This document shows, one piece after another, positions 3,313 to 55,886 of a stretch of 64,000 bases of DNA. Each line of letters opens with the position of its first letter. Position 1 is the first letter of the stretch. Location of the stretch: assembly GCA_031272025.1 (NCBI GenBank), contig JAISUP010000008.1, positions 654-64,653 of the forward strand. Reading direction: 5' to 3'. The position numbers and the translations under genes are program-made. The notes below the pieces were generated by a model, which was given only the letters and a program-made list of their open reading frames with translations, did no database searches and had not been told where the DNA came from. The stretch is from Bacteroidales bacterium. GTDB lineage: Bacteria > Bacteroidota > Bacteroidia > Bacteroidales > WCHB1-69.

Positions 3313-6450
<3,138 letters not shown>

Positions 6451-16968: not shown

Positions 16969-19434
16969 TTAAGAATTTGACTCTTCGGGTAAAAGGTTGT
17001 TCGTGTTCTCGTCAGGAATCGTCGCGGCATTATCTTCCACATCAGGGATGCTCTCCTTTGCCTTATCGGCAATTTCCGTTTCAGACACGGGGTCTTCTTT
17101 TTTATCTTTATCTGACTTCGGGGGATTTTTCATTACCCTAATCCGGTATTCCAAATCTTTCATCTCGGCTTTGGCTGCCTCAATTTTTTTCAAGAATTCC
17201 GATTTCAAAAGGTCGGCGTTTTTGGAATGTACAAAAAAACCTAAATTATTCTCCCACAAACGAATATCTTCTTTCAACTTTTCTACTTTCGAAGTCAAGA
17301 AACGTTTTTCTTTGTCAAGAATTTTTCCCGCGTTAGGGTTGCTGAGTATGGTTTCTATTTTACTCTTAAAACGGTCGTGTCGCAAATCTTCGGGATTAAG
17401 TTTTAACTCGTTAAAACATTTATTGATGGCTTCTCTATAACTGTTATACAGTTTTTCTTTCACTTTTTTAGGTACAAATCCTATTTCAGTCCATTCCCGT
17501 TGAAATGCCTTTAATACTTCAAGATTTTCGGCTTTATTGGTTCCAAAGATATGTGTTTTAATGCGCTCTATCAGGTTTTCCTTTTTTTCAAGATTTTCGG
17601 TTTCCTGTTGTCGTGCATCGGAAAAATAATGGGATTTGGCTTCAAAGAACTTGTCGCAAGCCGTGCGAAAACGTTTCCACACGATTTGCGAATATTTATG
17701 GGGCACCGCACCGATCTCTTTCCATTCTTTTTGCAATTGCAGTAATTCTGTGGTGGCATCCTTCCAATCGGTTCTTATTGACACTGCTTCTGCGCGAATA
17801 GCAATATCAAGTTTGCGATTGTAATTCTGCATTTGCTCATCTTTTACCCCCTGAAAATAATCTTTTTTCTCTTGGAAGAACTTATCCAACGTTTCTCTAA
17901 AACGTTGCCAAATACCCTCATTCAGTTTCACGGGAGCAGGTCCTAAGGTCTTCCACATCTTGAGCAACTCTGTCAATTTATCACTAATTTCCTTGTAGTC
18001 GCGTATGCTTTGACTCTCCGCGCTCACCAGCTCCTCTGCCTGCTCACACAAAACCACCTTTGCATTGTAATTGTTTTGCTGCTCCGCGAATATCCTGTCA
18101 TAAAACTCTTTACGACGAATGTTGATCTGGTCTGAGGCGGTCTTAAAACGTTCCCATATCTCCTCTTTTTTGTCCTCAGGCACGGGTCCTATCTCTTTCC
18201 ATTCGTTATGTAATTCCTGCAACGCCTTAAAAGAATCACTCACCGACTCCAAAAGTAACAACGACTCTGCCTTTTCACACAACTTAATCTTTTGCTCTAA
18301 ATTCTTTTTCAAGTCAAGAGTACGCAACTCTTTGTTTATACGCAAAATATCAAAAAACTTCTCTACATAAAAATGATAATTTTGCCATAAATTTGCAGAT
18401 TCGTTTTGAGGCACAGCACCAATGGATTTCCATTGCTCCTGAAATTCCTTAAAATTATCATTCAGTACTTTGAGATTATTTTCTGTTTCTACTAACTTTT
18501 TCAGTCCTTCTATAATATCTTTCTTGGCTTCCAAATTGCGCTGTTTTTCGGCTTCCAAGGCTTCCATGAAACGATTTTTGTTGTCTTTAAACAACTGCAT
18601 GGCAGCGTTGAAACGATCTTCCCACGCCACGGGCGATGCCTCGAATTCTTCTTTATTGCCTCCTGATTGTAAAAAAGCCGCTAACTGTTCTTGCCTATGG
18701 CTTTTTAACACGTTCAATAGTTTGGATTTCAGTATCCCGACTCGATGTTTAATTTTATTATAGTCAGTATCGGCAACCACTTCGGAAAGCACGGCTACAG
18801 CCTCTTCTGCCGACAAAGCCTCATACTCGGCAGTAATTTTTTCTATGTCGTCCTCGTTTTTAGAGGTGTCATCAGTATCTTCTTCCCCATGCACGAGGTC
18901 GTGCTGTGCCGATTCGATGTCTTCCATCATGGTCTCTGCATTCGTTACCACGGGGTCTTCTTTTATCTCGCCGGCAACTTCTGATGTTATCTCCGAAGGC
19001 TGCTCGGTAATAACGGTATCGACAGTTGCTTCTACTACCGTTTCCGAAGGCTGCTCGGTAATAGCGGTATCGACTGTTGCTTCTACTACCGTCTCTGAAG
19101 GTTGCTCGGTGGTAGCGGTATCAACTGTTGCTTCTACTACCGTCTCCGAAGGCTGCTCGGTGGTAGCGGTATCAACTGTTGCTTCTACTGCCGTCTCCGA
19201 AGGCTGCTCGGTGGTAGCAGTATCAACTATTGCCTCTACTACCGTCTCCGAAGGTTCTTCGGTCGCGATTTCTTCTGCCGTTTCCGTAACACCGGAAGAT
19301 AGCACGACATCATTTTCGACATTCGCGGGGAGTTCTTCTGTCGCATGTCTTTGGGTTTCTTCTGAAACGCCGGAGTTCACCTCTTGAGAAATAATATTCT
19401 CATTTTCAGGGTGAATGAGTTCTTTTGAATCCAT
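16969..19434 (-). CDS. DUF349 repeat protein with an acidic N-terminal 17-aa tandem repeat
   Basis: Multiple ~75-aa repeats of the W..F....F pattern (e.g. EIWERFKTASDQI, GIWQRFRETLDKFF, IVWKRFRTACDKFF). The N-terminus carries TTEQPSETVVEATVDTA about 5-6 times. Confidence 0.75.
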   Translation of the reverse strand: MDSKELIHPENENIISQEVNSGVSEETQRHATEELPANVENDVVLSSGVTETAEEIATEEPSETVVEAIVDTATTEQPSETAVEATVDTATTEQPSETVVEATVDTATTEQPSETVVEATVDTAITEQPSETVVEATVDTVITEQPSEITSEVAGEIKEDPVVTNAETMMEDIESAQHDLVHGEEDTDDTSKNEDDIEKITAEYEALSAEEAVAVLSEVVADTDYNKIKHRVGILKSKLLNVLKSHRQEQLAAFLQSGGNKEEFEASPVAWEDRFNAAMQLFKDNKNRFMEALEAEKQRNLEAKKDIIEGLKKLVETENNLKVLNDNFKEFQEQWKSIGAVPQNESANLWQNYHFYVEKFFDILRINKELRTLDLKKNLEQKIKLCEKAESLLLLESVSDSFKALQELHNEWKEIGPVPEDKKEEIWERFKTASDQINIRRKEFYDRIFAEQQNNYNAKVVLCEQAEELVSAESQSIRDYKEISDKLTELLKMWKTLGPAPVKLNEGIWQRFRETLDKFFQEKKDYFQGVKDEQMQNYNRKLDIAIRAEAVSIRTDWKDATTELLQLQKEWKEIGAVPHKYSQIVWKRFRTACDKFFEAKSHYFSDARQQETENLEKKENLIERIKTHIFGTNKAENLEVLKAFQREWTEIGFVPKKVKEKLYNSYREAINKCFNELKLNPEDLRHDRFKSKIETILSNPNAGKILDKEKRFLTSKVEKLKEDIRLWENNLGFFVHSKNADLLKSEFLKKIEAAKAEMKDLEYRIRVMKNPPKSDKDKKEDPVSETEIADKAKESIPDVEDNAATIPDENTNNLLPEESNS
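18990..19262. repeat. 51-bp tandem repeat, about 5.3 copies, inside the DUF349 gene
   Basis: The TC(C/T)GAAGG(C/T)TGCTCGG anchor recurs at 18992, 19043, 19094, 19145, 19196 and 19247, an exact 51-nt period. Confidence 0.9.
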
Positions 19435-38906: not shown

Positions 38907-41900
38907 ATGAAAAAGTTCCTATTTGTTATCGCGTTATGGGCGATAGTTCCGGCGGCGGTTTTCGCGCAGTTGTTGGACTCTACGTGGATTTATTATGAGA
39001 ATTTTAACGGGACAACAAGCAAAATTACTACCAGAGTAAAAGAAACCGATGTAACAGGCACCGAAGGTCGCACATGGGCTATAACCCAGCCTGCATGGGC
39101 TGCCAATAAATGTATGCGTGCTTATCACACGAAAGCCAGTGGAGACTACCAAATCGCTTACACCAAGCCGATTCCTTACAACCGGTCTACCCCGTTCACC
39201 TATTTGCAGTTTGATCATATTTGTAAAGTATATGGACTATCCGACGGTGACAATAATCCTGCTTATATTTTGATTCAATTCTCGTCAGATACCAACGCGG
39301 TCAACGCGTGGTCTTCGGAAACGTACCTGATGGGAAATTCGGTATTGTCGTTTAATGCTACTTCCGAAACCTACTTTGGAAATGCCACCACGATATTACA
39401 AGCCACAGCATATTATCCCAGCCTGATCACGTATGCTTCATTTTCAGATAAATCTTACAGCACGTGGGTCAATGGTAGTCCCACTACGATACCTACGGCA
39501 AGTTGGTGGAAAAACGAAACCATTAGAATAGACAACGAGTTACAGCAAGCAGCAGCCAATATCACGTTTTTCAGGGTAGCATTTATTTACTCCGTTTATT
39601 CGCCTACCACTGGCAACAATAATAATATGGCAGGATGGTTCGTGGACAACATCCGGGTTATCAATTCCAATGCCGACATCAACCCGCCCAAGATTACTTT
39701 GCAAAGCCCGTATAAAGTCAATGATCTTAAGCAAGATAGTGTAAATAATTATTACGAGATAAAGGCGTTGATTTCAGATTGGGGCAATGATACCCTTAAC
39801 CTCAATAGCATTTCTTTTAAATACAAGAATGGAAAAAATGCCTCGTGGATTACCTTGCCGGCATACAATTCTACCACTAATCGGACAACAACAGGGCACA
39901 AGGAACATCAATACACCGGGTTTTGGCGTGTTCCCAAACATTGTATCGGGGACACGATTTATTACACGATTTCAGCCACAGACATGCATGGGAACACGGC
40001 TACATTAGATACTAATTTTCGCTTGGTATCCAATTTCACTAATAATGTAACGAGCAATGATGCGTGGATGCGCAAATTTCACGATTTTCCATTTGCCTTA
40101 ACCACGGGGCAGTCTCATCCTGTTAAGGTGTCATTTGCCAACCGTTCCCAAAATCTCATGACTTCTTTGCAAATAGGGTGGAGTCATAACGGGGTGCAGA
40201 AAACTACATACAATTGGACCGCGCCGCCCGCGACTGCCCTTTGCATGGAAGAGCGGGACACGGTAATCTTGGGCAATATCGTGCCTGTAAATGGGCATAA
40301 CTATATCAAAGCATGGGTAATAAAGCGAAACGGGGCAAATGACAACGGCACGTTGAATAACGACACGATTTATGCCGATGTCTATTCTTGCGACAGCGCG
40401 CTCAACGGTACTTATACCGTAGGAGATGCCACCGCAGATTTCCCCACGATAGCCGCCTTAAAAGACAAACTCGCGAATTGTGGTATCGGTGGCAATGTGG
40501 TCATCAATCTCAAACCGGGGACTTATAGCGACTTCACATTCGACCAAACCTATAACGGGCAGTCGCAAGCCCACAGGATTACTTTCCAAGCCGAAAACGG
40601 CAACCGGAATGCCGTTATTATACAAGATAATAGCACTTCAGGAACGGGGGCTATCGTGCTCAACGGGGTGGGTTTTTATACTTTCCACAATCTCACCATT
40701 AAGGGAAAAACAACAGGAACCAGTTCCAGAGGGGTAACCTTTTTAAACAAAGCAACCACATCTTCCGACATCGTGATGAATCAATATATTACCATCTCTA
40801 ATTGCAAAATAGAAGTCAATACTCCGGCAACTCCCGGGACCGCGGATACTTATACTGGCATTTATCGTCTATTGAGCACGGCAAATAAAATAGATCGGCA
40901 TATCACGATCAAAGATAATATCATTACCGGCGGCAACTATGGCATTAACTATAAAGGAACAGGAACCGCCACTTGTCGCAATCAATTAGATGAAGTAACC
41001 GGAAACGAGATTAGCGCGGCAACACTTGGTATCGTGCTTTTTTACGACACAGTGAGCACGGTGTCGCACAACACGATAACACAAATCGGCACCACGGCAG
41101 GTTTTAGAGGTATTGACTTGGAAAATATTTACTTATGTCAGCAAGTTTCGGGAAACACGGTAAAAAACACGTCCACCGCGATTAAGGGCATTTATTTAGC
41201 GACAGTAGCCGGCACATCTTCTCTCCCGCTTAAAGTGGCTAATAATGAAGTAAATATATGTGTATCAGGGAGTTCTCCTACAGGGATAGAATTAGCCAAT
41301 GCCAGTAATAACGTGCAATTGTTGCACAATTCGGTACGGTTGTATGCCACGGCGAACCTAACTTCGCGCAGTGCCGGAGTAAAAACTACCGGAACAGGAA
41401 ACAACCAAATTGTCAATCTGGTTTTAAAAAATAATATCTTAGTTAACGAAGTCAATGGTTCCACCGAAACGTATCATGGTTGTCCGATTGAACTCGCGAA
41501 TCTTACCACTACATCATCTTTAACAGCAGATTATAATTTATTTTACTCTCCCAACGGGGTTGTAGGTTATTATAAGGCAAACCGGTCTTCGTTAGAGCAA
41601 TGGTGTTGGTATGTCAACGCGGACATGCAAGGCGGTAGCGTGGAAGATCATGGCATGGTACGCGACCCCGGTTTTGCTCATACCGACAGTTGCTTAGAAC
41701 TTTCGATATACGATGGATTAGAGGTTCCTATGATACCCGGTATAACCGAGGATATTAGAGGTATACAGAGAAAAACGCTCACCTATTTTGGAGCCTATAC
41801 CATTGTTTTGCCGGATGTGAATATCGCCTTGATAGAATTAGTGTCGCCACTTCCTGCTTCATGCCCGCAAAATACTGCCAATATCACGTTGAAAATAAGA

Positions 41901-44900
41901 AATGTAGGAGGTGAATCCATTAATTTTAACAGCACGACATCCAAACTAACCATACAAGCCGACATTTCGGGTGGTTACGAATTTCACCAGCCCGTTACCG
42001 TTACTACCGGTTCTTTAAATCCATTGGAAACACGAGATGTAATCATCAAGACAAACGCGCCGTTAGGGGTAAACGATCCTATCTATTTTAAGTTTGTCGC
42101 GAGCATCGCGGGCGATACCATCCATAGAAACGACACGTTAGAGCATGTTTTCTTACAAGAAAATGTAATCTTAAATATTACGGCTAATCCCAACGAGTAT
42201 GACCAAACGTTTTCTGCCCCAACCCTCTCGGACCTTTCTCCTGCATGGAAATCCGAACAAATCAGTGGGCTGGGCAATTGGAAAATAGAAAGTGGCACGG
42301 GGAGCAATCCTACCCTTGACCCAACATACGGGGGGGGACGGCTTTTCTTAGATTTAAAGAATTCGTCTCTTACCACCACTAACACTACCTTAGTCCTTTC
42401 GCGCGCCATTATGCCTGCCTTTTCTTTGGTAGGTAGCGAAAATCCTACCTTAAACGTGTGGTTCGCGCACGACAAAGTAGGGACAACCTCTATCGTTTCC
42501 GGTATAGTAGTTAAAGTATCCATTGATGGAGGTAACACGTTTACAGCGTTGAGAGCCACGGAATTTACAAATCAACAAGACACCTTAATCAAACGGTATC
42601 ACGCCTCTTACACTACCGCCGCCTTCAAACGCTATATCTTTAACCTTAACCCGTATATAGGGCAACAATGCGTGATTATTGCTATTGACGGACGCGGACT
42701 CGGCGCGGTAGCCAGCAATAGCAACTTGAATATTGACAGAGTATATATCAATAATGTCCGTTCCGATGATTTTAGTCTTACTGATTTATATTCATGGAGT
42801 GAGGCACCCACTAAAGCCAACATGTCCATGAAAACCAAAGTGCGAGTGGTTAACGTTGGAGCAGAAGAAAAAACGCACGATATCACGCTGAAAGTATCGG
42901 GAGCAAACACGTATACAGAAACCGTGAGCAACGTAACGCTTCCTTTTCTTGGAGAAACGGTTATTAGTTTCAACGGGACACATTTGAATAACAACGGGAA
43001 CAATGTAGTAACCGTGTTCGTGTCTGGCGGCGACAACAACAAGCAAAACGACACGATACGAAAACCTTTGACTACCTATGATTATAGAGTAAATTTCGCG
43101 GACACTTCTACCAATCTCAAAGCCATTGGCGGTACGGCGGGAACCCGTCTCGCGAATCGTTATAACGTGGCAGAAGAAATCATTACCAATGCCGTACGTT
43201 TTTATCCCGTGAGTATCACAGATAATCCTGTGGGGAAAAAAGTATATGCTTTCGTGTCGGATCTCGCGGGTAACGTGATTGCCCAATCCGATACCCTTAC
43301 CCTCACCGCCGGGCATGTGAACACTTGGGTAGAGTTACCCATGAACCAATCCATATTGAGTAACGTGAGCGACTGTTTTTTCGCGGGAATACATCTCATG
43401 GATGCCGGTAATTACATCGGGGCACAAGTGGAGGCACCCATGCGCGATTCGGCATACTATACCTTGGGAACCAATAAACAATATACCCCGCAGGTTAATG
43501 GCAGGGCAATGATTGGGGCAGTAGTAGAAAAAGCCATATTGAACGACATGGCATTACTTTCGTATGTTTCACCGGTATCAAATTGCGACTTGGGACACGA
43601 GAATGTTACATTGAACTTGACTAACTACGGGTCGCAAACCATTCCCGCGGGCACAGTTTTTCACTTGTCGGTCAATAATTCGCACGTAGCACAACAAACC
43701 ATGACTGAGCCTTTGCCTCGTTTGGGGACGACTACATTCACGTTCTCCTACAAACCCGACTTTACCAACACGCAAGTTGGTGTAGACGACAACTATCAGT
43801 TAAAAGTATGGATAGAAAAGTTAACGGCAGACCGTGTTCCCGGCAACGACACGTTAGAATACGATTTTATTTCGCGGGGTAAAGCCAACATGCCCACGGT
43901 TAGTACGCCAATAAACGTACCATATAGTACTTCGGGGACGCTTACGGCAACCTTTCCTCCTGCCATACCTGCAAACAATGGAGTGCTTTCGTGGTACCAA
44001 AATGTGGGCGTGGAGCAATGGCAATTATTGGGACAAGGCAATACATTCCTAACCCCTGAAATTTTGTGGGATACAGCCTATTATGTCAATGTGGCTCAGG
44101 GAGGAATTGATGAAGCCATTTGTGGCACCGGCACCGTCTCAAACTCTTACATGTTTAACCTCATCAATAACTATTCCAAAGCCCGTGCCCTTTACCGTGC
44201 CATAGATTTAGGTAATAAAAATGGCTATGTTGCTAAAATCTTCGTTAACGTGGAATTACCTACTACACCGGTAGAAAACGTGGCTAATATAAAGATATAT
44301 CTTAAAAATACAGACCTGACCGCATTGACTGTACATGCTGTAAGTTCTTGGACAGATGAAATATCGGGTGCCTTATTAGTGTACGATGGTCCGTCTTCGA
44401 TATTTAACAAGGCGGGGTGGAACGAATTGGTATTGCCCGAACTCTTTAAATACACGGGACAAAGTTTGATGATTTTAACAGAGAGCACAGGAACCGTGGG
44501 AACGGCTACCAATATTTGTAAATTTATTTCTACCAATGTAACTAATACGCAGGATTATAGGACTGCCGCAGATGCTTTTAACTCGGCAACCTTTTCAACC
44601 AGCTCTGCCCGTATGAATGTTAAGTTTTCTTTTGCCGATATTTTGTGCCCCAGTGAAAAAGTGCCCATTCAAATTCTTATGACCGGAGCACCTAATTATG
44701 ACTTAGAAACGATGAAATTTTTACCCCCAACAGGTGCTTACGGCAATTACTGTACCTTAGAAAACGAGCATCCCGTCGTTATCTTAAAAAACCGGATGAA
44801 CTCGACTATTCCTGCTAATAAAGTGAAAATTACGGCGATATTTAATGGTACCCCCATTACCTATACCGTGGATAGACCTATTTTAGCGTCTTCTATCGAT

Positions 44901-47900
44901 ACCATTACATTCCCCAATACTTTCGATTTTAAAGCAACCACTGCCGATATTACATGGAATTACACTATTTTTACCGACCTGCTTGGAGAAAGCATTGTTT
45001 TTAGAAATGACGATACGATTAAGGGTAATTTTAAAGCGGAACAAACCGATTGGTTCCCCGATGAAATAGATTCTATCAATCACCCGTTTGCCACAGACTT
45101 TAAATTACAACTACGCGAAACTAACGGGAACTATAACGCGTCACGCAGATATTGGGTATACAATAACCCCGAAGGAACCGGTACCCCCTTAGCCAGCAAC
45201 GTGGCTTCGTTCACTACCCCCGTGCTATATGACGACATTACTTACTGGGTAAAATCTATCAACTTACAAACTGCCGCTCCCCGTTGTAGCACGAAAATGG
45301 TGAAATATACCATACATCTGCTCGCTCCTCAGCACGACTTGAAAGCCGTTTCGTACAATAGCCCGAATAACTACGAATGCGGTTTGACTAATGCCCATTT
45401 TAATGTAGATGTACAAAATACCCGTGTGGGCGTTATTCCCGCTAACACGTTCAAAATCAATGCAAATCTTACAGGGACAAGCACAAAGACAGGCTCTCAA
45501 ACCATTACCGTACCCATTGACAGTTTGGCTACTCACAAGGTAATTTTCAATACAGCAATAGACCTAACCTCACCCACACAAAACAATATATATAACTATG
45601 TCATCACGGTACAGCCTACGGGGAATATGCCCAACGACTATAAAAATAATGATACCCTAACGGGCGTGTTGAAAGTGCCTGCACTACCCAATGCTCCTAC
45701 TCCCATTTCCAGATCTGTAACCTTTGGAAATGAAGAACACATTGTTCCCTCCGAGTCATATCTTAATTATTTCTATTTTTATGATCAAAATGTTGGTGGT
45801 AATGTTATAGGCGAGGGAACTTCTTTTACCACTCCCCCCATTCGTACCAATACCACTTATTACTATTCGGGACGTATTCGGCAACCCGAATTTGCCGCAC
45901 AGCCCATTTGTGGGACAGGAACAACTCAGAATGTTTCTACTTTCAGTTTTACCACGGGAACCAATGCCACGAAATTGGGACAAGCAATACAATTGTATGA
46001 GGCAGCCGAATTAAACGATGGTTACGCGGGATATATAGATACCGTATCTATTCCTATCACGCATATCGCGGGTTCGCCTTTCCCCGTGAAGTTTTATATC
46101 CTTAACGACAGTACTACCTCCCTTGCTACAGCAGGAGCCTATCCTTGGGCAACGCTCGTGTCAAAGGCGACCTTAATTTTTGATGGAGAAACTGATTTTG
46201 GAAATACAGAGAACATTGACGGTATCGCGTGGTTTAAAATGCCCGTGCAAGGAGGTTTCTATTACACGGGACACAATATCTTATTGCTCATCGTACAAGA
46301 TTGTAATGGAGAATCTTGTTACACGATGGTAGGGAATAGCAGCAATACCACCCCGAATTTTAGATGCACGAGCAAAGCCAATTTCGCTGTGAACCGGCTC
46401 AATAGCACCACGGGAACAGAGAATTTTGCTAAGATTACAAACCGGATCAATACTCGATTCTCTTTCACGTACACCTGCCCATCTCCTCGTTCGCCCATCA
46501 CGCTAACCACGGTACAACCCGCTTGCGACCTGCAAGTAGCAAATATCACTGCCCCCATCACCCCGAATGATAATTACAGTACGAGCGAACAAGTAACGGT
46601 ATCTATCAAAAACTGGGGAACAACGGCGGCTTCCAATTTCCCGGTTACTTATTGTTTGGAAGGAAAAACACCGGTAACAGAGACTTACACGAATACGATA
46701 GCCGCGGGAGGAACGGGCATTTTTACCTTCGCTGCCCCCATAGACCTCACAGATATATATTTCCCCGAAAAATTGACGGTGAGCGTAAGATTAGCCTGTG
46801 ATAATATCACCAAAGACGATACCCTGATTTTGGAAGTCCAAAAACCGTCTCCTTGCAAATCGTATCCCTTAGAAGCCGATAAAGCAGATATTTCTAATGT
46901 TACCATTGCCGACCTTAATAATGGTCCGGGACTACCCTTGTTCAACTATAATCCTAACCCCAACAACGGACGTTATACAAACTATACGCAGACAGTGCCC
47001 CCTGTAAACGTGGTGCGGGGACAATCTCACGATTTTTCCATTACCAATTCCTTTACTACCACCGCAGGTTCGTCTATTTATCGCTATATTTACGTAGATT
47101 TAAACCGCGATAACACACTTGCTACCAATGAAAATCTATTTTCATCTACGGCACAAACCCCCACGGCAAACAATGGATACGCCACGATTAGCGGGTCAAT
47201 TTATATCCCGGATACGGCAGCCTTGGGGTTAACTCTAATGCGAATAATCACGGCAAGTACAACACAAACTTCACCCTGCGCGATTTATACCAGCGGGGAA
47301 ACCGAAGATTATGCCATGATTATTCACGAACCATATAACATAGACCCCGGTATTGTAGAAATCGTACACCCTTCAGGCGAGGTATGTCCTGATTCGTCAG
47401 GTAGAGTACGTGTGCGTATCAAAAACCACGGTACCTCTCCCATAACTTTCTCGGAAACCATGCCCATGACCTTAACAGCAACCCTGAGAACAGCCACAGA
47501 CACCGTTTCTTACACACAAGATTATACTTCGGGTACCATCTTGCCGGACGAAACAACCATGTTCGCGGTGGATCATGTCAACTGGCGTAAAGCAGGCACG
47601 TATGCCGTGAGCGTGAGTATGACATACCCCCCGGATGAATACGTGTATAATAATGTTAAATCCGGAACCGTGGCTACCGTGAAGGCGAACACGAAAGTCA
47701 TAGAAATGTCGGACAAGAAAGCCTACGAACGATTTGACTACGAAAAACAATTGTATTCAGGGGAAGAAATTGATGAATTTTTACTTGATACTGCCTTGTG
47801 GACAGCAACGACAACGCCAACCACTGTTACCAACTTTAAGTGGTCGGTATTTATGAGTAAAACCGACAACGCGCCTAACGCGGGACCATTGCACGACCAC

Positions 47901-48953
47901 ACTACCGGTGTACCCTCCAGGGGGATGCCCGAAGGGTGGTTCGCGGCAGTATCGGCACCAAGTAATGCATCGACAACCGCGGTGGCATATCTCACCACTG
48001 CATGTCTAAACCTGCATTATGAAAACGGATACCCCAAAAAAGTATCCTATTGGGAACATATCTATGCCAAAGATACTACCGCGAGCGTGCGCGTAAGAGT
48101 AGAGGTTGGCTCCGGCAATAACTTTATCCCCATAGACGAATTTACCGGTCCTACCCAATCGTATGATACCTCTGCATGGCTCAATCGTTATGTCATGCTC
48201 AACGAATTTGACGAAATTGCAAAGGTGCGTTTCATCGCCGACAAGCATAGCAAAATGATAGATCCCGCCCTCGACGACATTCGTTTTGGTTACGGCTACC
48301 CCGACTTAGGTATAGATTCCATTCTCTTCCCCAAATCATATAAAAACGTATCAAACAGAGATAAAGATTGTATTAGTTACAACGATACCATATATCCCGT
48401 GATACTGATCCATAACTATGGAACAGAAGCAGTATATGAATATGATATACAGGCAAGTGCATCCGTTGGAGATTATGATAACACGATAACCGAACACGTG
48501 AGTCAAGTTCTCATGCCGGGAGATACCATGTATTATACCCTGAAAACAGCGTTAGTGGCTCCATCAAAATACAGTCATTGTGAAATCGTGGTTCGGGTAT
48601 ATACCGACTTTGATGAAAACTCGAAAAATGACGAACAATGGATTATTTCCTGCATTGATGTAGGGGTAGGCGTAGAAGATATTCTCGTGAGAAAAGGGTA
48701 CTCGTTAGGACAAAATATACCTAATCCTGCCAATGGACTTACCCAAATACCATTCTCGCTGCCGGAACCTGGACAGGTTACTTTCCAAATACATACCATA
48801 GAAGGACAAACCTTGTACAACGAAACACAATTTTATAACGGGGGCGAACAAAGATGGAACTATAACACTGCCTCCTTACCATCGGGCATTTATCTCTATA
48901 CCATGCATTGTAAAGACGTGATACTTACCCGAAAAATGGTCGTGGAACGTTAG
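38907..48953 (+). CDS. giant (3,348 aa) mosaic secreted/surface protein, T9SS cargo
   Basis: An uninterrupted 10,047-nt ORF with signal peptide MKKFLFVIALWAIVPAAVFAQ. It carries a beta-helix-like region, repeated CARDB-like modules, a GEVED domain, a MAM-like domain and a type-A T9SS CTD (sub-features below). Confidence 0.85.
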   Translation: MKKFLFVIALWAIVPAAVFAQLLDSTWIYYENFNGTTSKITTRVKETDVTGTEGRTWAITQPAWAANKCMRAYHTKASGDYQIAYTKPIPYNRSTPFTYLQFDHICKVYGLSDGDNNPAYILIQFSSDTNAVNAWSSETYLMGNSVLSFNATSETYFGNATTILQATAYYPSLITYASFSDKSYSTWVNGSPTTIPTASWWKNETIRIDNELQQAAANITFFRVAFIYSVYSPTTGNNNNMAGWFVDNIRVINSNADINPPKITLQSPYKVNDLKQDSVNNYYEIKALISDWGNDTLNLNSISFKYKNGKNASWITLPAYNSTTNRTTTGHKEHQYTGFWRVPKHCIGDTIYYTISATDMHGNTATLDTNFRLVSNFTNNVTSNDAWMRKFHDFPFALTTGQSHPVKVSFANRSQNLMTSLQIGWSHNGVQKTTYNWTAPPATALCMEERDTVILGNIVPVNGHNYIKAWVIKRNGANDNGTLNNDTIYADVYSCDSALNGTYTVGDATADFPTIAALKDKLANCGIGGNVVINLKPGTYSDFTFDQTYNGQSQAHRITFQAENGNRNAVIIQDNSTSGTGAIVLNGVGFYTFHNLTIKGKTTGTSSRGVTFLNKATTSSDIVMNQYITISNCKIEVNTPATPGTADTYTGIYRLLSTANKIDRHITIKDNIITGGNYGINYKGTGTATCRNQLDEVTGNEISAATLGIVLFYDTVSTVSHNTITQIGTTAGFRGIDLENIYLCQQVSGNTVKNTSTAIKGIYLATVAGTSSLPLKVANNEVNICVSGSSPTGIELANASNNVQLLHNSVRLYATANLTSRSAGVKTTGTGNNQIVNLVLKNNILVNEVNGSTETYHGCPIELANLTTTSSLTADYNLFYSPNGVVGYYKANRSSLEQWCWYVNADMQGGSVEDHGMVRDPGFAHTDSCLELSIYDGLEVPMIPGITEDIRGIQRKTLTYFGAYTIVLPDVNIALIELVSPLPASCPQNTANITLKIRNVGGESINFNSTTSKLTIQADISGGYEFHQPVTVTTGSLNPLETRDVIIKTNAPLGVNDPIYFKFVASIAGDTIHRNDTLEHVFLQENVILNITANPNEYDQTFSAPTLSDLSPAWKSEQISGLGNWKIESGTGSNPTLDPTYGGGRLFLDLKNSSLTTTNTTLVLSRAIMPAFSLVGSENPTLNVWFAHDKVGTTSIVSGIVVKVSIDGGNTFTALRATEFTNQQDTLIKRYHASYTTAAFKRYIFNLNPYIGQQCVIIAIDGRGLGAVASNSNLNIDRVYINNVRSDDFSLTDLYSWSEAPTKANMSMKTKVRVVNVGAEEKTHDITLKVSGANTYTETVSNVTLPFLGETVISFNGTHLNNNGNNVVTVFVSGGDNNKQNDTIRKPLTTYDYRVNFADTSTNLKAIGGTAGTRLANRYNVAEEIITNAVRFYPVSITDNPVGKKVYAFVSDLAGNVIAQSDTLTLTAGHVNTWVELPMNQSILSNVSDCFFAGIHLMDAGNYIGAQVEAPMRDSAYYTLGTNKQYTPQVNGRAMIGAVVEKAILNDMALLSYVSPVSNCDLGHENVTLNLTNYGSQTIPAGTVFHLSVNNSHVAQQTMTEPLPRLGTTTFTFSYKPDFTNTQVGVDDNYQLKVWIEKLTADRVPGNDTLEYDFISRGKANMPTVSTPINVPYSTSGTLTATFPPAIPANNGVLSWYQNVGVEQWQLLGQGNTFLTPEILWDTAYYVNVAQGGIDEAICGTGTVSNSYMFNLINNYSKARALYRAIDLGNKNGYVAKIFVNVELPTTPVENVANIKIYLKNTDLTALTVHAVSSWTDEISGALLVYDGPSSIFNKAGWNELVLPELFKYTGQSLMILTESTGTVGTATNICKFISTNVTNTQDYRTAADAFNSATFSTSSARMNVKFSFADILCPSEKVPIQILMTGAPNYDLETMKFLPPTGAYGNYCTLENEHPVVILKNRMNSTIPANKVKITAIFNGTPITYTVDRPILASSIDTITFPNTFDFKATTADITWNYTIFTDLLGESIVFRNDDTIKGNFKAEQTDWFPDEIDSINHPFATDFKLQLRETNGNYNASRRYWVYNNPEGTGTPLASNVASFTTPVLYDDITYWVKSINLQTAAPRCSTKMVKYTIHLLAPQHDLKAVSYNSPNNYECGLTNAHFNVDVQNTRVGVIPANTFKINANLTGTSTKTGSQTITVPIDSLATHKVIFNTAIDLTSPTQNNIYNYVITVQPTGNMPNDYKNNDTLTGVLKVPALPNAPTPISRSVTFGNEEHIVPSESYLNYFYFYDQNVGGNVIGEGTSFTTPPIRTNTTYYYSGRIRQPEFAAQPICGTGTTQNVSTFSFTTGTNATKLGQAIQLYEAAELNDGYAGYIDTVSIPITHIAGSPFPVKFYILNDSTTSLATAGAYPWATLVSKATLIFDGETDFGNTENIDGIAWFKMPVQGGFYYTGHNILLLIVQDCNGESCYTMVGNSSNTTPNFRCTSKANFAVNRLNSTTGTENFAKITNRINTRFSFTYTCPSPRSPITLTTVQPACDLQVANITAPITPNDNYSTSEQVTVSIKNWGTTAASNFPVTYCLEGKTPVTETYTNTIAAGGTGIFTFAAPIDLTDIYFPEKLTVSVRLACDNITKDDTLILEVQKPSPCKSYPLEADKADISNVTIADLNNGPGLPLFNYNPNPNNGRYTNYTQTVPPVNVVRGQSHDFSITNSFTTTAGSSIYRYIYVDLNRDNTLATNENLFSSTAQTPTANNGYATISGSIYIPDTAALGLTLMRIITASTTQTSPCAIYTSGETEDYAMIIHEPYNIDPGIVEIVHPSGEVCPDSSGRVRVRIKNHGTSPITFSETMPMTLTATLRTATDTVSYTQDYTSGTILPDETTMFAVDHVNWRKAGTYAVSVSMTYPPDEYVYNNVKSGTVATVKANTKVIEMSDKKAYERFDYEKQLYSGEEIDEFLLDTALWTATTTPTTVTNFKWSVFMSKTDNAPNAGPLHDHTTGVPSRGMPEGWFAAVSAPSNASTTAVAYLTTACLNLHYENGYPKKVSYWEHIYAKDTTASVRVRVEVGSGNNFIPIDEFTGPTQSYDTSAWLNRYVMLNEFDEIAKVRFIADKHSKMIDPALDDIRFGYGYPDLGIDSILFPKSYKNVSNRDKDCISYNDTIYPVILIHNYGTEAVYEYDIQASASVGDYDNTITEHVSQVLMPGDTMYYTLKTALVAPSKYSHCEIVVRVYTDFDENSKNDEQWIISCIDVGVGVEDILVRKGYSLGQNIPNPANGLTQIPFSLPEPGQVTFQIHTIEGQTLYNETQFYNGGEQRWNYNTASLPSGIYLYTMHCKDVILTRKMVVER
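40401..41600 (+). other. right-handed parallel beta-helix-like region of the giant protein (about aa 499-898)
   Basis: The entry motif LNGTYTVGDATADFPTIAALKDKLANCGIGGNVVINLKPGTYSD is followed by about 20-25-residue repeats rich in N/G/I/T (ITIKDNIITGGNYGINYKG, NNEVNI, LKNNILVN). Confidence 0.5.
44115..44680 (+). other. paralogous Cys-bounded module, copy 1 (about aa 1737-1925)
   Basis: ICGTGTVSNS...ALYRAIDL...IKIYLKNT...LLVYDG...GWNEL...FKYTGQSLMIL...RMNVKFSF..CPSEKVPI. The same ordered motif set appears in copy 2. Confidence 0.5.
45903..46510 (+). other. paralogous Cys-bounded module, copy 2 (about aa 2333-2535)
   Basis: ICGTGTTQNV...IQLYEAAEL...VKFYILND...TLIFDG...AWFKM...FYYTGHNILLL...RINTRFSF..CPSPRSPI. 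Confidence 0.5.
46854..47330 (+). other. GEVED-type domain of the giant protein
   Basis: It ends with SPCAIYTSGETEDYAMII (the GE[VT]EDY signature, G at 47295). Upstream, YVDLNRDNTL corresponds to the WIDWNxDG position of the family. Confidence 0.55.
47835..48296 (+). other. MAM-like domain of the giant protein
   Basis: FKWSV...GPLHDHTTG...GWFAAVSAPSN..TAVAYLTTACLNL...VRFIADK...ALDDIRFGYG follows the usual MAM motif order (DHT.G, then a large-block L.SP-like motif, then a terminal DDI.F). Confidence 0.5.
48672..48950 (+). other. type-A T9SS C-terminal sorting domain of the giant protein
   Basis: GQNIPNPANGLTQIPFSLPEPGQVTFQIHTIEGQTLY...LPSGIYLYTMHCKDVILTRKMVVER, the same architecture as the GH18 tail at 8741-8971. 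Confidence 0.8.
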
Positions 48954-49667: not shown

Positions 49668-49701
49668 CTGCAACATACTTGTTAACAAATCAATTTGTGA
49701 A

Positions 49702-49781
49702 GAGGCTGTCTCAAAAGTAGAAAAACTGCGTCATTCCGGCGAAAGCCGGAATCCCCTTATAATCGTTAAATATTAATATAC
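49702..49781 (+). repeat. 80-bp REP/MITE-like repeat, copy A (head GAGGCTGTCTCAAAAG + GNRA-capped hairpin)
   Basis: 76/80 identical to the reverse complement of 52755-52834. It contains the hairpin ATTCCGGC-GAAA-GCCGGAAT. It generates the spurious track ORF 49576-49776. Confidence 0.85.
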
Positions 49782-49879
49782 ATTCATATCCATAGAAAGA
49801 CTGGTTGAGCAACAAATCTAACATAACCCGCTCAATAAAATCGCATATTGACTTGTTTGTCAATAACTTGCTCTCTTTG

Positions 49880-51038: not shown

Positions 51039-52502
51039 TCAATTCTGCTTTTCTTCTTCCCAAACTTTACAATGTTTGATAGATAGGCTCCCCGGATTGA
51101 ATTTTGGGGCTTTTATGCCTCTTTTTGTTTGTTGTTCGTAGTCGGCAAAAGTTTTCAGTGCCGTTTTTTGCAACAAGAGTAGTGCCACAATATTGAACCA
51201 TGCCATCAATGCAACCCCGATATCTGCAATATCCCAAGCGGTTTGCATGGAGGAGATGGAGGTGAAATACATGCATATTAAAAATAGCAAACGAATAGAT
51301 AGTAGTGCTGCTTTTTGTTTTTTTTCTTTTCTAAAAAGAAAATAGATGTTGCTTTCTGCTTGAAAATAATAACTCATTAAAGTAGTAAAGGCAAACAAAG
51401 CCAAGACAATGGCTACGAAAGGTGCCCCAAAGCCGGGAAAATGTAAATCTAATCCCATTTGTGTATATATAGGACCATGTTCAACGATTGTAGATGGAAG
51501 ATTGCCCCCGCTGAGAATAACTTGTCCTTTCGCGTCGAACACATCATACATACCGGTAGATAAAATGATGAAGGCAGTAGCAGAACAAACGAGAAGGGTA
51601 TCGGTATACACGGAAAAGGCTTGAACTAATCCTTGTTTTGAAGGATGTGAAACATCAGCCGCTGCCGCCGCGTGAACAGCAGAGCCTTGTCCTGCTTCGT
51701 TTGAATATATGCCGCGCTTTACCCCCATGGCAATCGCCGCTCCTGCTATTCCACTCAAAGCAGGCTCCAAGCCGAAAGCAGATCTGATTATCAGGGTAAA
51801 AACTTCAGGTATCTCTGTATAATGTATGCCTACAACAATAAGAGCCACAATGATATATAATAATGCCATGAATGGTGTGATAAACTCTGCAATTTTAGCA
51901 ATACGTTTTATTCCTCCGAAAATAATAATAGCCAATAAAACTAAAATCGCGGCTCCCGTTATTTTTAAATCTACCCCAAAAGCATGTTGAAAGGCATAAC
52001 CCACATTGTTGGCTTGGACACCGGGGCATAGAATGCCTTCTGCCACAATAGTAATGAGCGCAAATACCATGGCAAAGTATTTGTTTTGCAAACCGTGAAG
52101 AATATAAAAAGCAGGACCTCCACGAAAATGTCCGTCAATTTGTTCTTTGTAAATCTGTCCTAAACTTGCTTCCATATAAGCGGTACTTGCTCCTAAAAAA
52201 GCCGTTAACCACATCCAGAAAACAGCACCGGGACCTCCTAAGGCTATTGCTGTGGCAACCCCCGCGATATTTCCGGTGCCTACTCTTCCTGCTAACGCTA
52301 ACATGAAGGCTTGAAAAGAAGATATGCCCACTTTTGATGATTTACTCACAAAGAGCATTTTTGCCATGCTTTTTAAATAGCGAATTTGTAAAAATCGAGT
52401 ACGAATCGAAAAATATAAGCCTACACATAAGCATAGTAAGACTAATCCCATCCCCATAAGATGCGAACTTAGAAAGGTAATGAACTCAGAGAAAGTATTC
52501 AT
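51039..52502 (-). CDS. alanine/glycine:cation (sodium:alanine) symporter family protein
   Basis: 487 aa with about 11 hydrophobic helices. GGPGAVFWMW and SNEAGQGS motifs are typical of the AGCS family. Confidence 0.85.
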   Translation of the reverse strand: MNTFSEFITFLSSHLMGMGLVLLCLCVGLYFSIRTRFLQIRYLKSMAKMLFVSKSSKVGISSFQAFMLALAGRVGTGNIAGVATAIALGGPGAVFWMWLTAFLGASTAYMEASLGQIYKEQIDGHFRGGPAFYILHGLQNKYFAMVFALITIVAEGILCPGVQANNVGYAFQHAFGVDLKITGAAILVLLAIIIFGGIKRIAKIAEFITPFMALLYIIVALIVVGIHYTEIPEVFTLIIRSAFGLEPALSGIAGAAIAMGVKRGIYSNEAGQGSAVHAAAAADVSHPSKQGLVQAFSVYTDTLLVCSATAFIILSTGMYDVFDAKGQVILSGGNLPSTIVEHGPIYTQMGLDLHFPGFGAPFVAIVLALFAFTTLMSYYFQAESNIYFLFRKEKKQKAALLSIRLLFLICMYFTSISSMQTAWDIADIGVALMAWFNIVALLLLQKTALKTFADYEQQTKRGIKAPKFNPGSLSIKHCKVWEEEKQN

Positions 52503-52547
52503 AATCCATACATAAAATAATAATTATCTTGTTGTTTAAATTTTGTA

Positions 52548-52555
52548 CAAAGATA
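52548..52555 (-). promoter_or_regulatory. -7 promoter box TAtcTTTG
   Basis: 45 nt upstream of the symporter ATG at 52502 and outside the repeat element. Confidence 0.5.
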
Positions 52556-52566
52556 ACAATTTTTTG

Positions 52567-52886
52567 GTTAATATTTTTTTGAGGTGCTATATCCTTTTGA
52601 ATTTCATAGTTCCGCATGGTCGGTTGTAAAAAATTGCCATGTTGATTTGAAAGTTCTTTTTACAAAATTTCCAGTTGTTCTGAGGCTGTCTCAAAAGCTC
52701 GTCATGGCGGCCTTGATCCGCCATCTCCCGAAGACCGCCAAATGCTAAATAATTGTATATTAATTTTTAACGATTAGAAGGGGATTCCGGCTTTCGCCGG
52801 AATGATGCAGCTTTTCTACTTTTGAGACAGCCTCTTAATAAAGCGTTTTCCCCGCGGGAAAAATAGCACCTCAAAAAAATATTAAC
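52567..52886. mobile_element. 320-bp MITE-like element bounded by perfect 24-bp terminal inverted repeats
   Basis: GTTAATATTTTTTTGAGGTGCTAT at 52567-52590 has its exact reverse complement at 52863-52886. There is no coding capacity and no obvious target-site duplication. Confidence 0.4.
52682..52834. repeat. 153-bp palindromic REP-like pair (copy C, plus strand, 52682-52764; copy B, minus strand, 52755-52834) nested in the MITE-like element
   Basis: The 16-bp termini are perfect: GAGGCTGTCTCAAAAG at 52682-52697 and CTTTTGAGACAGCCTC at 52819-52834. The two units are joined tail to tail at TATATTAAT. Each unit carries a hairpin of different sequence. Confidence 0.8.
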
Positions 52887-52928
52887 GAAAAGAAACTTAT
52901 CAAACATGATGCCAAATCTGCCGAAATT

Positions 52929-53066
52929 ATACGACCGTTTTTTATAGACATCTTCTTTTTCTAATAATTTTTCTTTTAATGTTTTTCACGGTGCAAAAAT
53001 ACAACTTTTAACCGAATAAGCACACATTTTTTTTTTTCATTTTCTGTCTATAACAAACGGTCGTAT
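52929..53066. promoter_or_regulatory. candidate invertible promoter: a 22-bp inverted repeat flanking a 94-bp segment with a central promoter box
   Basis: ATACGACCGTTTTTTATAGACA (52929-52950) against TGTCTATAACAAACGGTCGTAT (53045-53066) gives 21/22 complementary positions. The TATTTTTGCAC box sits exactly mid-segment. Confidence 0.3.
52994..53001 (-). promoter_or_regulatory. orphan -7 promoter box TAttTTTG(CA) pointing away from the methyltransferase gene
   Basis: The reverse complement of GTGCAAAAATA. No annotated gene starts within 400 nt downstream on the minus strand. Confidence 0.4.
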
Positions 53067-53116
53067 TTTCACGACAATTACGATAATATTTTAAAAATTA
53101 AAAAATAAATGCAACC

Positions 53117-53839
53117 ATGTTAAGTAGAAAAGTTACCAATGCCATCCGGTTTGTAATGGACGAATTACTGCCGCCAATAATCAGAGATAACAAATATTTT
53201 ATGTATCCGTTCTTCTTTTTTTGGTTCAAGGGTAAAAATACAAAAGCATGGATGAATATAAAATCTGTCTTTTATAAACTATCTGATAAAGAATATGTTT
53301 CATTTTATGATCTTTATGAAAATGGCGCGTACATATCTAAACGCGTAACTGATTTGAGCGAGCGCACCATTTCATTTATTATTAACAGTTTGAATGAATA
53401 TGAGGTATTGCACCATGAATATAGTATACTTGACGTTGGTTGTGGAAAAGGATATTTGCTCAAACGATTGCATGATGCTGGCTTTCATAATTTAACAGGT
53501 GTTGATTTAGCAACGTCATCTCTATATAATGAAATAGAAATAATAAACGGTAATGTAGAAGATTTACCCTTTGATAATAAATCTTTTGATGTTGTTCTTT
53601 GTAGCCATACATTAGAACATGTTTTAAATTTAACACAAGCCATATCTGAATTAAAGAGAGTTGCAAGAAAGATATTAATCATTACGGTGCCGAGACAGCG
53701 TTACTACCATTATACATTAGATGGGCATATAAATTTTTTCCCCGAAAAGTCTTATCTACTAAAAGCACTTGATATAACGGATGAAAAAACAACTTGTAAA
53801 AATATCAGCGGGGATTGGACTGTAATAATTGAACTCTAA
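53117..53839 (+). CDS. class I SAM-dependent methyltransferase (Methyltransf_11-like)
   Basis: Motif I ILDVGCGKGYLLKRL, a post-I acidic residue (GVDL), and FDVVLCSHTLEHV. The gene is visibly more AT-rich than its neighbours. Confidence 0.75.
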   Translation: MLSRKVTNAIRFVMDELLPPIIRDNKYFMYPFFFFWFKGKNTKAWMNIKSVFYKLSDKEYVSFYDLYENGAYISKRVTDLSERTISFIINSLNEYEVLHHEYSILDVGCGKGYLLKRLHDAGFHNLTGVDLATSSLYNEIEIINGNVEDLPFDNKSFDVVLCSHTLEHVLNLTQAISELKRVARKILIITVPRQRYYHYTLDGHINFFPEKSYLLKALDITDEKTTCKNISGDWTVIIEL

Positions 53840-53999
53840 CCTTGAGCAGTTCGGCGGTTTCGCGGGTGACTTCGGCATCGTGCCATGTGTTGTTAATTTT
53901 GATAAATATCAATTCTTCAATGATTTACGTATTTTGGGGAAATGTTAGGGGTTAAGAAGAATGAACCGTGGGATTTATAGAAGAAAGATACGGAAAAAT

Positions 54000-54635
54000 T
54001 TAGTTTTTCTCGTTTTTGTCGCAAATGGGTTCCAAGCCACAGGATGTACATTTGGGTTTTTTGGCGGTACAAACGTAGCGACCGTGCAAAATAAGCCAAT
54101 GATGGGCTTTGTGTATCAGTGCTTTTGGGAAATGTTGGGTCAGTTGTTTTTCTACTTCTAATGGGGTGTCGGCGTGTTGTACGATGCCCAGCCGGTTGGC
54201 TACCCTGAACACGTGGGTATCTACTGCCATTGCCGGCTGATGAAACCATACCGATAGCATGACATTCGCGGTTTTGCGTCCTACCCCGGGTAACGATTCC
54301 AACCCTTCTCGGGTAGAGGGCACTTCTCCATGAAACTCACGGGATATTTTCTCCGCTAATCCTTTCAAATGAGCGCTTTTACTGTTGGGATAGGAGACTG
54401 ATTTTACGATATGAAAGATGTCTTCTAATGAAGCAGCGGCAAGTTGAGTGGGAGTAGGATAGTGCTCGAAAAGGACCGGGGTTATCATGTTTACTCGCTT
54501 GTCGGTACATTGTGCCGACAGTACCACGGCAACGAGCAATTGAAACGCGCTATTATAGTGTAACTCAGAAGTAGCGTTAGGTCGTTCTGCTTCAAAATAA
54601 CGAATCAGGTAATCGTATTTTTGTTTCAGTGTCAT
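54000..54635 (-). CDS. nth: endonuclease III
   Basis: HhH-GPD with LPGVGRKTANV, the catalytic region DTHVFRV, and a C-terminal 4Fe-4S cluster C-x6-C-x2-C-x5-C (CTAKKPKCTSCGLEPIC). The ATG at 54635 is 8 nt after the lysA stop. Confidence 0.9.
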   Translation of the reverse strand: MTLKQKYDYLIRYFEAERPNATSELHYNSAFQLLVAVVLSAQCTDKRVNMITPVLFEHYPTPTQLAAASLEDIFHIVKSVSYPNSKSAHLKGLAEKISREFHGEVPSTREGLESLPGVGRKTANVMLSVWFHQPAMAVDTHVFRVANRLGIVQHADTPLEVEKQLTQHFPKALIHKAHHWLILHGRYVCTAKKPKCTSCGLEPICDKNEKN

Positions 54636-55824: not shown

Positions 55825-55878
55825 CTTAAATGTTCTTGTTTCAAAAAAAAGTTAACCCTATACTATAAAAAATGGTCG

Positions 55879-55886
55879 CGAAGGTA
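55879..55886 (-). promoter_or_regulatory. -7 promoter box, TTCGCG variant (TAccTTCGCG)
   Basis: 54 nt upstream of the lysA ATG at 55824. Confidence 0.45.

Follow-up and report, generated by a model that had tools for sequence, protein, structure and literature searches.

The 614-bp intergenic region (52503-53116) that separates a sodium:alanine symporter gene from a divergently transcribed methyltransferase gene includes a 138-bp element (52929-53066, both arms included), for which the favoured reading is an orphan invertible promoter, or inverton, captured in the OFF state with respect to the methyltransferase. This assignment is tentative and derives from the nucleotide sequence of the window, the term used here for the whole 64-kb stretch of DNA that was analysed. 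The features of the region are listed below in the order in which they occur.

51039-52502, minus strand: sodium:alanine symporter gene (Pfam Na_Ala_symp, 4.7e-150)
52548-52555, minus strand: -7 box of the symporter gene, TATCTTTG, 46 nt upstream of its ATG
52552-52901: nested palindromic repeat element of 350 bp, located 27 bp to the left of the 138-bp element
52929-52950: left arm of the 138-bp element, ATACGACCGTTTTTTATAGACA, 22 nt
52951-53044: bracketed segment or putative invertible core, 94 bp, AT-rich
52994-53001, minus strand: Bacteroidota -7 box, TATTTTTG, in the context GAAAATGAAAAAAAAAAATGTGTGCTTATTCGGTTAAAAGTTG-TATTTTTG-CACCGT
53045-53066: right arm, TGTCTATAACAAACGGTCGTAT, complementary to the left arm at 21 of 22 positions
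53060-53075: small local hairpin, GTCGTATTTTCACGAC, made up of the outer end of the right arm and its flank
53117-53839, plus strand: class I SAM-dependent methyltransferase gene, 240 amino acids (Pfam Methyltransf_11, 2.2e-19)

The inverted repeat

The original prediction described a 22-nt inverted repeat with a single mismatch whose arms enclose 94 nt, and we found it precisely where it had been placed. The sole difference between the arms is a T/G mismatch at arm position 13. When at most one mismatch and a loop of 20-600 nt are allowed, the pair of arms is the second-longest local inverted repeat of the window, and the longest inverted repeat in each of 30 windows simulated with a Markov-1 model reached only 14-17 nt as compared to the 22 nt observed. 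The arm sequence is found twice in the 64-kb window with up to three mismatches allowed, while 100 shuffles gave an expectation of zero copies. The 22-nt inverted repeat is far beyond what chance would produce. The core enclosed by the arms (52951-53044) has no ORF of at least 50 amino acids, and it showed no similarity to any other part of the window or to the fetched relative loci, plasmids, phages and viral contigs.

Visual inspection of the DNA around each arm for hix-like sites and tyrosine recombinase cores revealed weak dyad symmetry and candidate 8-bp spacers that are unlike on the two sides. The possibility of an integron attC site, also considered by eye, was discarded: the RYYYAAC and GTTRRRY cores are missing, and the element is located upstream of an ORF instead of downstream.

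Immediately to the right of the right arm there is a series of ACGAY motifs with a spacing of about 10 nt (GTCGT at 53060, ACGAC at 53071 and ACGAT at 53081). Since motifs containing CG are otherwise rare in the surrounding AT-rich stretch, the motifs at 53060-53085 may constitute a protein-binding array.

A further sequence resembling the arm, CTATAAAAAATGGTCG, occupies nucleotides 55863-55878 and matches it at 15 of 16 positions (BLAST E value 0.4). It adjoins, on the downstream side, the -7 box TACCTTCG (55879-55886, minus strand) of a lysA-like gene. In view of its E value and its overlap with the lysA promoter region we did not accept it as a third copy of the arm, and it is probably a chance match; if real, it would add a third site for recombination or binding, 2.8 kb from the element.

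The central promoter-like site and the genes around it

The presence of a -7 box on the minus strand at the exact centre of the segment was borne out: the midpoint of TATTTTTG, at 52997.5, is also the midpoint of the element. The 11-mer that had been quoted for this site, TATTTTTGCAC, spans nucleotides 52991-53001 instead, and its coordinates had to be corrected while the box and its place were retained. Because the box is exactly central, an inversion of the segment 52951-53044 would map it to the same coordinates on the plus strand and, as was originally proposed, aim it at the methyltransferase ATG at 53117.

The sequence TAnnTTTG occurs 88 times in the window, and 20 of these occurrences are within the 4,210 nt of intergenic DNA. 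With intergenic boxes this dense, a box in a 94-bp core is unremarkable by itself; our own estimate from composition, which was not computed by a tool, is about 0.13 boxes by chance in an AT-rich core of this size. The promoters of the window share a more extended pattern, an upstream A-tract followed by TAnnTTTGCA, and a position matrix was trained on nine other promoters of the same window. This matrix generalises, as its top matches outside the training set include sites located right before gene starts. The TATTTTTG box, which fits this extended pattern, obtained a score of 14.5, which ranks 20 among 127,938 positions, as opposed to 8.4 for the best plus-strand site within nucleotides 52503-53110. 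By these measures the core holds one good promoter-like site of the sigma-AB type, on the minus strand.

The earlier statement that neither TAnnTTTG nor TAnnTTCG is found between the right arm and the methyltransferase ATG held when nucleotides 53067-53116 were scanned. The sole other plus-strand TAnnTTTG upstream of the methyltransferase gene is TACTTTTG at 52817-52824, 293 nt before the ATG. It is a part of the neighbouring repeated element, recurs in the other copy of that element at 49712-49719, and has a matrix score below 5.7. The genes downstream of the methyltransferase gene, which are endonuclease III-like, diaminopimelate/ornithine decarboxylase-like and RluD-like, are all on the minus strand. 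As a lone plus-strand gene between minus-strand genes, the methyltransferase gene needs a promoter of its own; judged by the matrix and the motif scans it is without a recognisable one in the present arrangement, and the sole good site nearby points away from it.

NCBI lists a protein with 100% identity to the methyltransferase, MDR1757497.1, annotated as a class I SAM-dependent methyltransferase from a Bacteroidales MAG; the closest other homologues are at most 58% identical. NCBIfam returned generic matches only, all of them below threshold. The G+C content of the gene is 0.29-0.32 (about 0.30) compared with 0.42-0.48 in the flanks, defining an AT-rich island that was probably acquired horizontally. 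In four of the relative loci (L002-L005) the homologous gene is found within GT2-methyltransferase-PMT_2/TPR operons, and in a fifth one (L006, NCBI GCA_031553535.1) it is opposite a PMT-family gene. The adjacency of these relatives to GT2 or PMT-type glycosyltransferase genes suggests that the substrate of the enzyme is a glycan or a lipid-linked sugar, and that the gene was acquired separately in this genome. The domain content identifies the enzyme as a UbiE/Methyltransf_11-type methyltransferase and not as a DNA-modification methylase, so that the analogy with switched modification genes, which had been drawn in general terms, applies to glycan or lipid modification and had to be given up for DNA modification. 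Genes for surface modification such as these are often phase-variable. At the fifth locus, which has no inverted repeat, a fixed TATCTTTG box precedes the orthologous ATG by 99-106 nt; this is roughly the place that the flipped box would take in the window, 116-123 nt before the methyltransferase ATG.

On the other side of the intergenic region, the symporter gene has its own box TATCTTTG on the minus strand 46 nt before its ATG, in agreement with the original prediction. The matrix score of this box is 23.4, a value that is circular, as is its rank, because the box is one of the nine training sites. The encoded protein aligns over its full length with homologues of 481-490 amino acids. The box in the core now points toward the symporter gene, which is 492 nt away.

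Between the symporter box and the 138-bp element is the 350-bp nested palindromic element. Its arms of 39 nt are 87% identical (29 nt with one mismatch) and 272 nt apart, and no other local inverted repeat in the window is as strong. It includes an inner repeat, GAGGCTGTCTCAAAAG / CTTTTGAGACAGCCTC, and GC hairpins such as GGATTCCGGCTTTCGCCGGAATG, and when folded as RNA it reaches -120 kcal/mol with a z value of -8.1. A portion of 83-101 nt recurs in reverse complement at 49687-49787, between two convergent genes. The left arm of this neighbouring element extends into the upstream portion of the symporter promoter, and the window-trained matrix found no good promoter within the element. A search of nucleotides 52000-54000 against Rfam, with E values up to 1, gave no match. 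The element looks REP- or MITE-like.

Recombinases, relatives and known invertible switches

No recombinase, integrase, resolvase or transposase domain was detected by a Pfam scan of the 44 large ORFs, which agrees with the earlier remark that the window has no recombinase gene. At the level of that scan, the stretch free of recombinases around the element extends 53 kb to the left and 11 kb to the right.

The ORFs of the window show other peculiarities. The DUF349 protein gene at 16969-19434 includes six tandem copies of a 51-nt unit (18939-19314), an array that was reported as overlapping 121-nt repeats with 60-91% identity. The ORF at 38907-48953 codes for 3,348 amino acids with GEVED, Ig-like (CHU_C-associated) and type IX secretion C-terminal sorting domains, and judging by these domains it specifies a giant secreted or surface protein.

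The same strain was found in a second metagenome (JGI 3300005723) as a 985-bp scaffold with one SNP in 985 nt. This scaffold corresponds to nucleotides 53251-54305 of the window, and the right arm lies 185 nt to the left of its start. In it a run of Ns replaces nucleotides 53858-53992, the spacer between the methyltransferase gene and the endonuclease III-like gene. The core is on record in a single orientation, the putative OFF one, from one assembly.

The arm pattern TACGACCGTTTNTTATAGAC had no matches in 185,579 species genomes, the JGI metagenomes and the viral contigs, and blastn analysis of nucleotides 52900-53116 against plasmids and phages gave no match either. A gapped pattern, TACGACCGTTTN{100,130}AAACGGTCGTA, matched two genomes (Streptomyces and Butyrivibrio) and three metagenome sequences; these five were rejected as relatives of the element, being unrelated palindromes with only an 11-13-mer in common. 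The match in Butyrivibrio hungatei NK4A153 is in a region of four nested inverted repeats of 28-43 nt (nucleotides 4187-4707 of the locus), and that in Streptomyces diastatochromogenes is a multi-layer palindrome with a 66-nt arm (nucleotides 1-191); both have only TACGACCGTTTTT in common with the window element. That the arms found no match in these collections is weak evidence against a multi-copy family. The closest symporter homologues, with 72-75% identity, are found in unrelated gene contexts, and the regions upstream of the methyltransferase homologues showed no comparable or strong inverted repeat nearby. The lineage is thinly sampled, with identities of 58% to the next methyltransferase homologue and 75% to the next symporter homologue.

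Promoters flanked by inverted repeats are common in Bacteroidales. The capsular polysaccharide (CPS) invertons of B. intestinalis are 183-186 bp long with the 10-bp repeat GTTCGTTTAA, which has an overlap with ARACGTTCGTN, the repeat of the B. fragilis promoters under Mpi control (PMC8375218). When set against the Mpi core ARACGTTCGT as quoted there, ATACGACCGT agrees at 7 of 10 positions, an agreement to which we assign a chance of about 0.09 by our own estimate, not computed by a tool. The arm (ATACGACCGTTT...) thus departs from the Mpi-class consensus in the form quoted in that source, and the ACG-NN-CGTTT skeleton common to both is a lead, not a sign of membership. As in the Mpi-class invertons (the PS loci of B. 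fragilis and PVR7-12 of B. intestinalis), the host belongs to the Bacteroidales and a short intergenic promoter segment lies between inverted repeats; in that class the recombinase may be encoded far off and acts globally. The differences are that the core of 94 bp is about half the 183-186 bp of B. intestinalis, that a single methyltransferase gene is found downstream in place of an upxY-led CPS operon, and that the candidate described here is known from its sequence alone, with no Mpi homologue known for this genome.

A second point of comparison is the flagellar switch of C. difficile (Cdi4), a segment of 154 bp between 21-bp imperfect repeats that is inverted by RecV, with both orientations present in sequenced strains and confirmed experimentally (PMC5386303). 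The gene for RecV is located away from this switch, and RecV acts on several switches that have no repeat consensus in common (PMC5386303). A recombinase located far from its switch is therefore plausible, and since RecV acts on switches with unrelated repeats there is a precedent for combining a distant recombinase with a private repeat sequence. Both Cdi4 and our element are small 5'-region switches, actual or putative, with arms of similar size (22 nt with one mismatch here, 21 bp and imperfect there). Cdi4 belongs to another phylum, its segment is 154 bp instead of 94 bp, and two orientations are known for it while one is on record here. Indeed, 94 bp is less than in any of the documented Bacteroides and Clostridioides switches compared (154-186 bp). 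The element is small yet within range: among 10,983 read-supported PhaseFinder invertons, more than 75% have a length below 300 nt (PMC11602134).

The 138-bp element can also be compared with fimS: in both, a promoter on an invertible segment, here a putative one, would switch an adjacent gene, and the OFF state reads away from that gene. The fimS segment of E. coli, inverted by FimB and FimE, is 314 bp long, has 9-bp repeats and is adjacent to its recombinase genes. The segment described here is much shorter, and there is no recombinase gene nearby.

Invertible promoter, foldback element or fixed structure

If the element is an inverton, a site-specific recombinase whose gene lies in another part of the genome would pair the arms and exchange strands within them, and the 94-bp core would flip, which would move the central box to the plus strand without changing its coordinates. 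In the flipped state, transcription would start near 53006-53010 and run through the right arm into the methyltransferase gene, so that the 5' UTR would measure about 110 nt. As the core is oriented now, the promoter would read leftwards across the left arm and then across the structured repeat element in the direction of the symporter gene. The predictions of this reading that can be made at the level of the sequence, namely the repeat, the inner site, the lack of a rival plus-strand promoter and a Bacteroidales host, all stood, while agreement with the Mpi-class consensus did not. The lack of a target duplication of at least 3 bp and of a second copy in the window or in the collections searched also speaks for an inverton. 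Against it stand the single recorded orientation, the lack of recombinase domains among the 44 large ORFs scanned and the nested palindromic element 27 bp away. A distance of 94 bp between crossover sites would also be very short for synapsis and would need sharp bending of the DNA, and comparative support is wanting, as a homologous inverted-repeat element is absent from the genome and metagenome collections searched.

The same arms and core could also be what is left of a non-autonomous transposon, a MITE-like foldback element whose AT-rich core lies between terminal repeats of 20-22 nt; it would have been inserted in the divergent promoter region and would not flip. We consider this somewhat unlikely. 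Such an element may carry an outward or internal promoter by happenstance, by analogy with the Correia elements of Neisseria. Correia-type and IS630-related MITEs are 100-160 bp long, have an AT-rich core between terminal repeats of 20-26 nt, insert next to genes, and can have promoter activity and TA target duplications; the 138-bp element resembles them in size, terminal repeats, AT-rich core and gene-adjacent position. As would be the case for a MITE, it has terminal inverted repeats and no coding capacity, its core is AT-rich, and its site is intergenic. If the element is taken to be CGACCG...CGGTCG (52932-53063), there is a TA on either side, and because TA is self-complementary a TA duplication of the IS630/Tc1 type would only lengthen the apparent repeat. 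The surroundings are also suitable, as the region of the methyltransferase gene is rich in AT and was probably gained by horizontal transfer, and small repeats gather here: the adjoining 350-bp palindromic element has a partial copy 3 kb away. The location of that element at a distance of only 27 bp indicates that foldback-type repeats accumulate in this intergenic region, which keeps a MITE-like origin of the 138-bp element in play. On the other hand, in contrast to the Correia-type MITEs, the element is found only once in the 64 kb and is without relatives in the collections searched. Its arms were unmatched, with the exact as well as the relaxed pattern, in the 185,579 species genomes, JGI metagenomes, viral contigs, plasmids and phages, a search of limited power. 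Furthermore, there is no unambiguous target duplication of at least 3 bp in spite of the 21/22 identity of the arms, and no transposase is encoded in the window among the 44 large ORFs scanned with Pfam.

A static cis-regulatory structure, in which the arms are paired regulator sites through which the promoter between them is looped out and silenced, or form a 22-bp stem in a transcript, is unlikely on the whole. The arm centres are 116 bp apart, or about 11 helical turns, which would put them in phase as in gal-type repressor loops, and the ACGAY motifs that follow the right arm at their spacing of about 10 nt hint at a protein-binding array by the methyltransferase start. However, neither arm is dyad-symmetric by itself, as operators of dimeric regulators typically are, no regulator gene is adjacent to the element, and no further copies of the arm site are found in the window. 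The first 12 nt of the arm coincide with the operator ATACGACCGTTTCTGTCGCA of Caulobacter DriD (PMC9186387), but this likeness involves one half-site only and is of near-chance significance, and the partner half-site is 124 nt away instead of 6-7 nt; a DriD/WYL operator was therefore dismissed and the resemblance treated as a coincidence. As RNA the element folds with -32.5 kcal/mol and a z value of -5.6, as a transcript stem might, but such a stem needs an upstream promoter, and neither flanking gene has a known promoter from which transcription would cross both arms. The repeat could also be functionless, a local inverted duplication that arose neutrally, for instance by template switching, around a leftward promoter of the ordinary kind; in our judgement this is decidedly improbable. 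The leftward promoter could in that case be a distal second promoter of the symporter gene, or the promoter of a small RNA ending at 52846-52862. The box does face the symporter gene and, about 140 nt downstream on the minus strand, a terminator-like hairpin (52846-52862), so that it might produce a short leftward RNA, and boxes of its kind are dense in intergenic DNA (20 in 4.2 kb). This hairpin is weak, with three G-C pairs and a poor T tail, and the symporter gene is already served by a stronger proximal promoter. The 21/22 identity of the arms in otherwise unique AT-rich DNA points to a recent origin or to maintenance, and a neutral duplication leaves the methyltransferase gene without a recognisable promoter.

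An extension of the inverton hypothesis would make the whole intergenic region a compound switch, in which two adjacent invertible modules, one of 272 bp within 39-nt arms and the other of 94 bp within 22-nt arms, re-route promoters between the divergent genes under the control of one or more recombinases encoded elsewhere. We regard this arrangement as very improbable; if it were true, the 94-bp module would be among the shortest invertible promoters known.

Should the 138-bp element be a MITE or a static palindrome, there would be nothing unusual about its presence next to an AT-rich gene that was probably acquired. As an inverton it would be a small addition to a well-known kind, contributed by an unsampled lineage. 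If the flipping is real, a 94-bp core would be near the lower size limit for synapsis and would bear on how recombinases bend DNA. Promoter inversion would then extend to a deep-branching uncultured lineage of the Bacteroidales, and to a lone methyltransferase of the glycan or lipid type in place of a capsule operon, where the switch would give on/off heterogeneity of surface modification.
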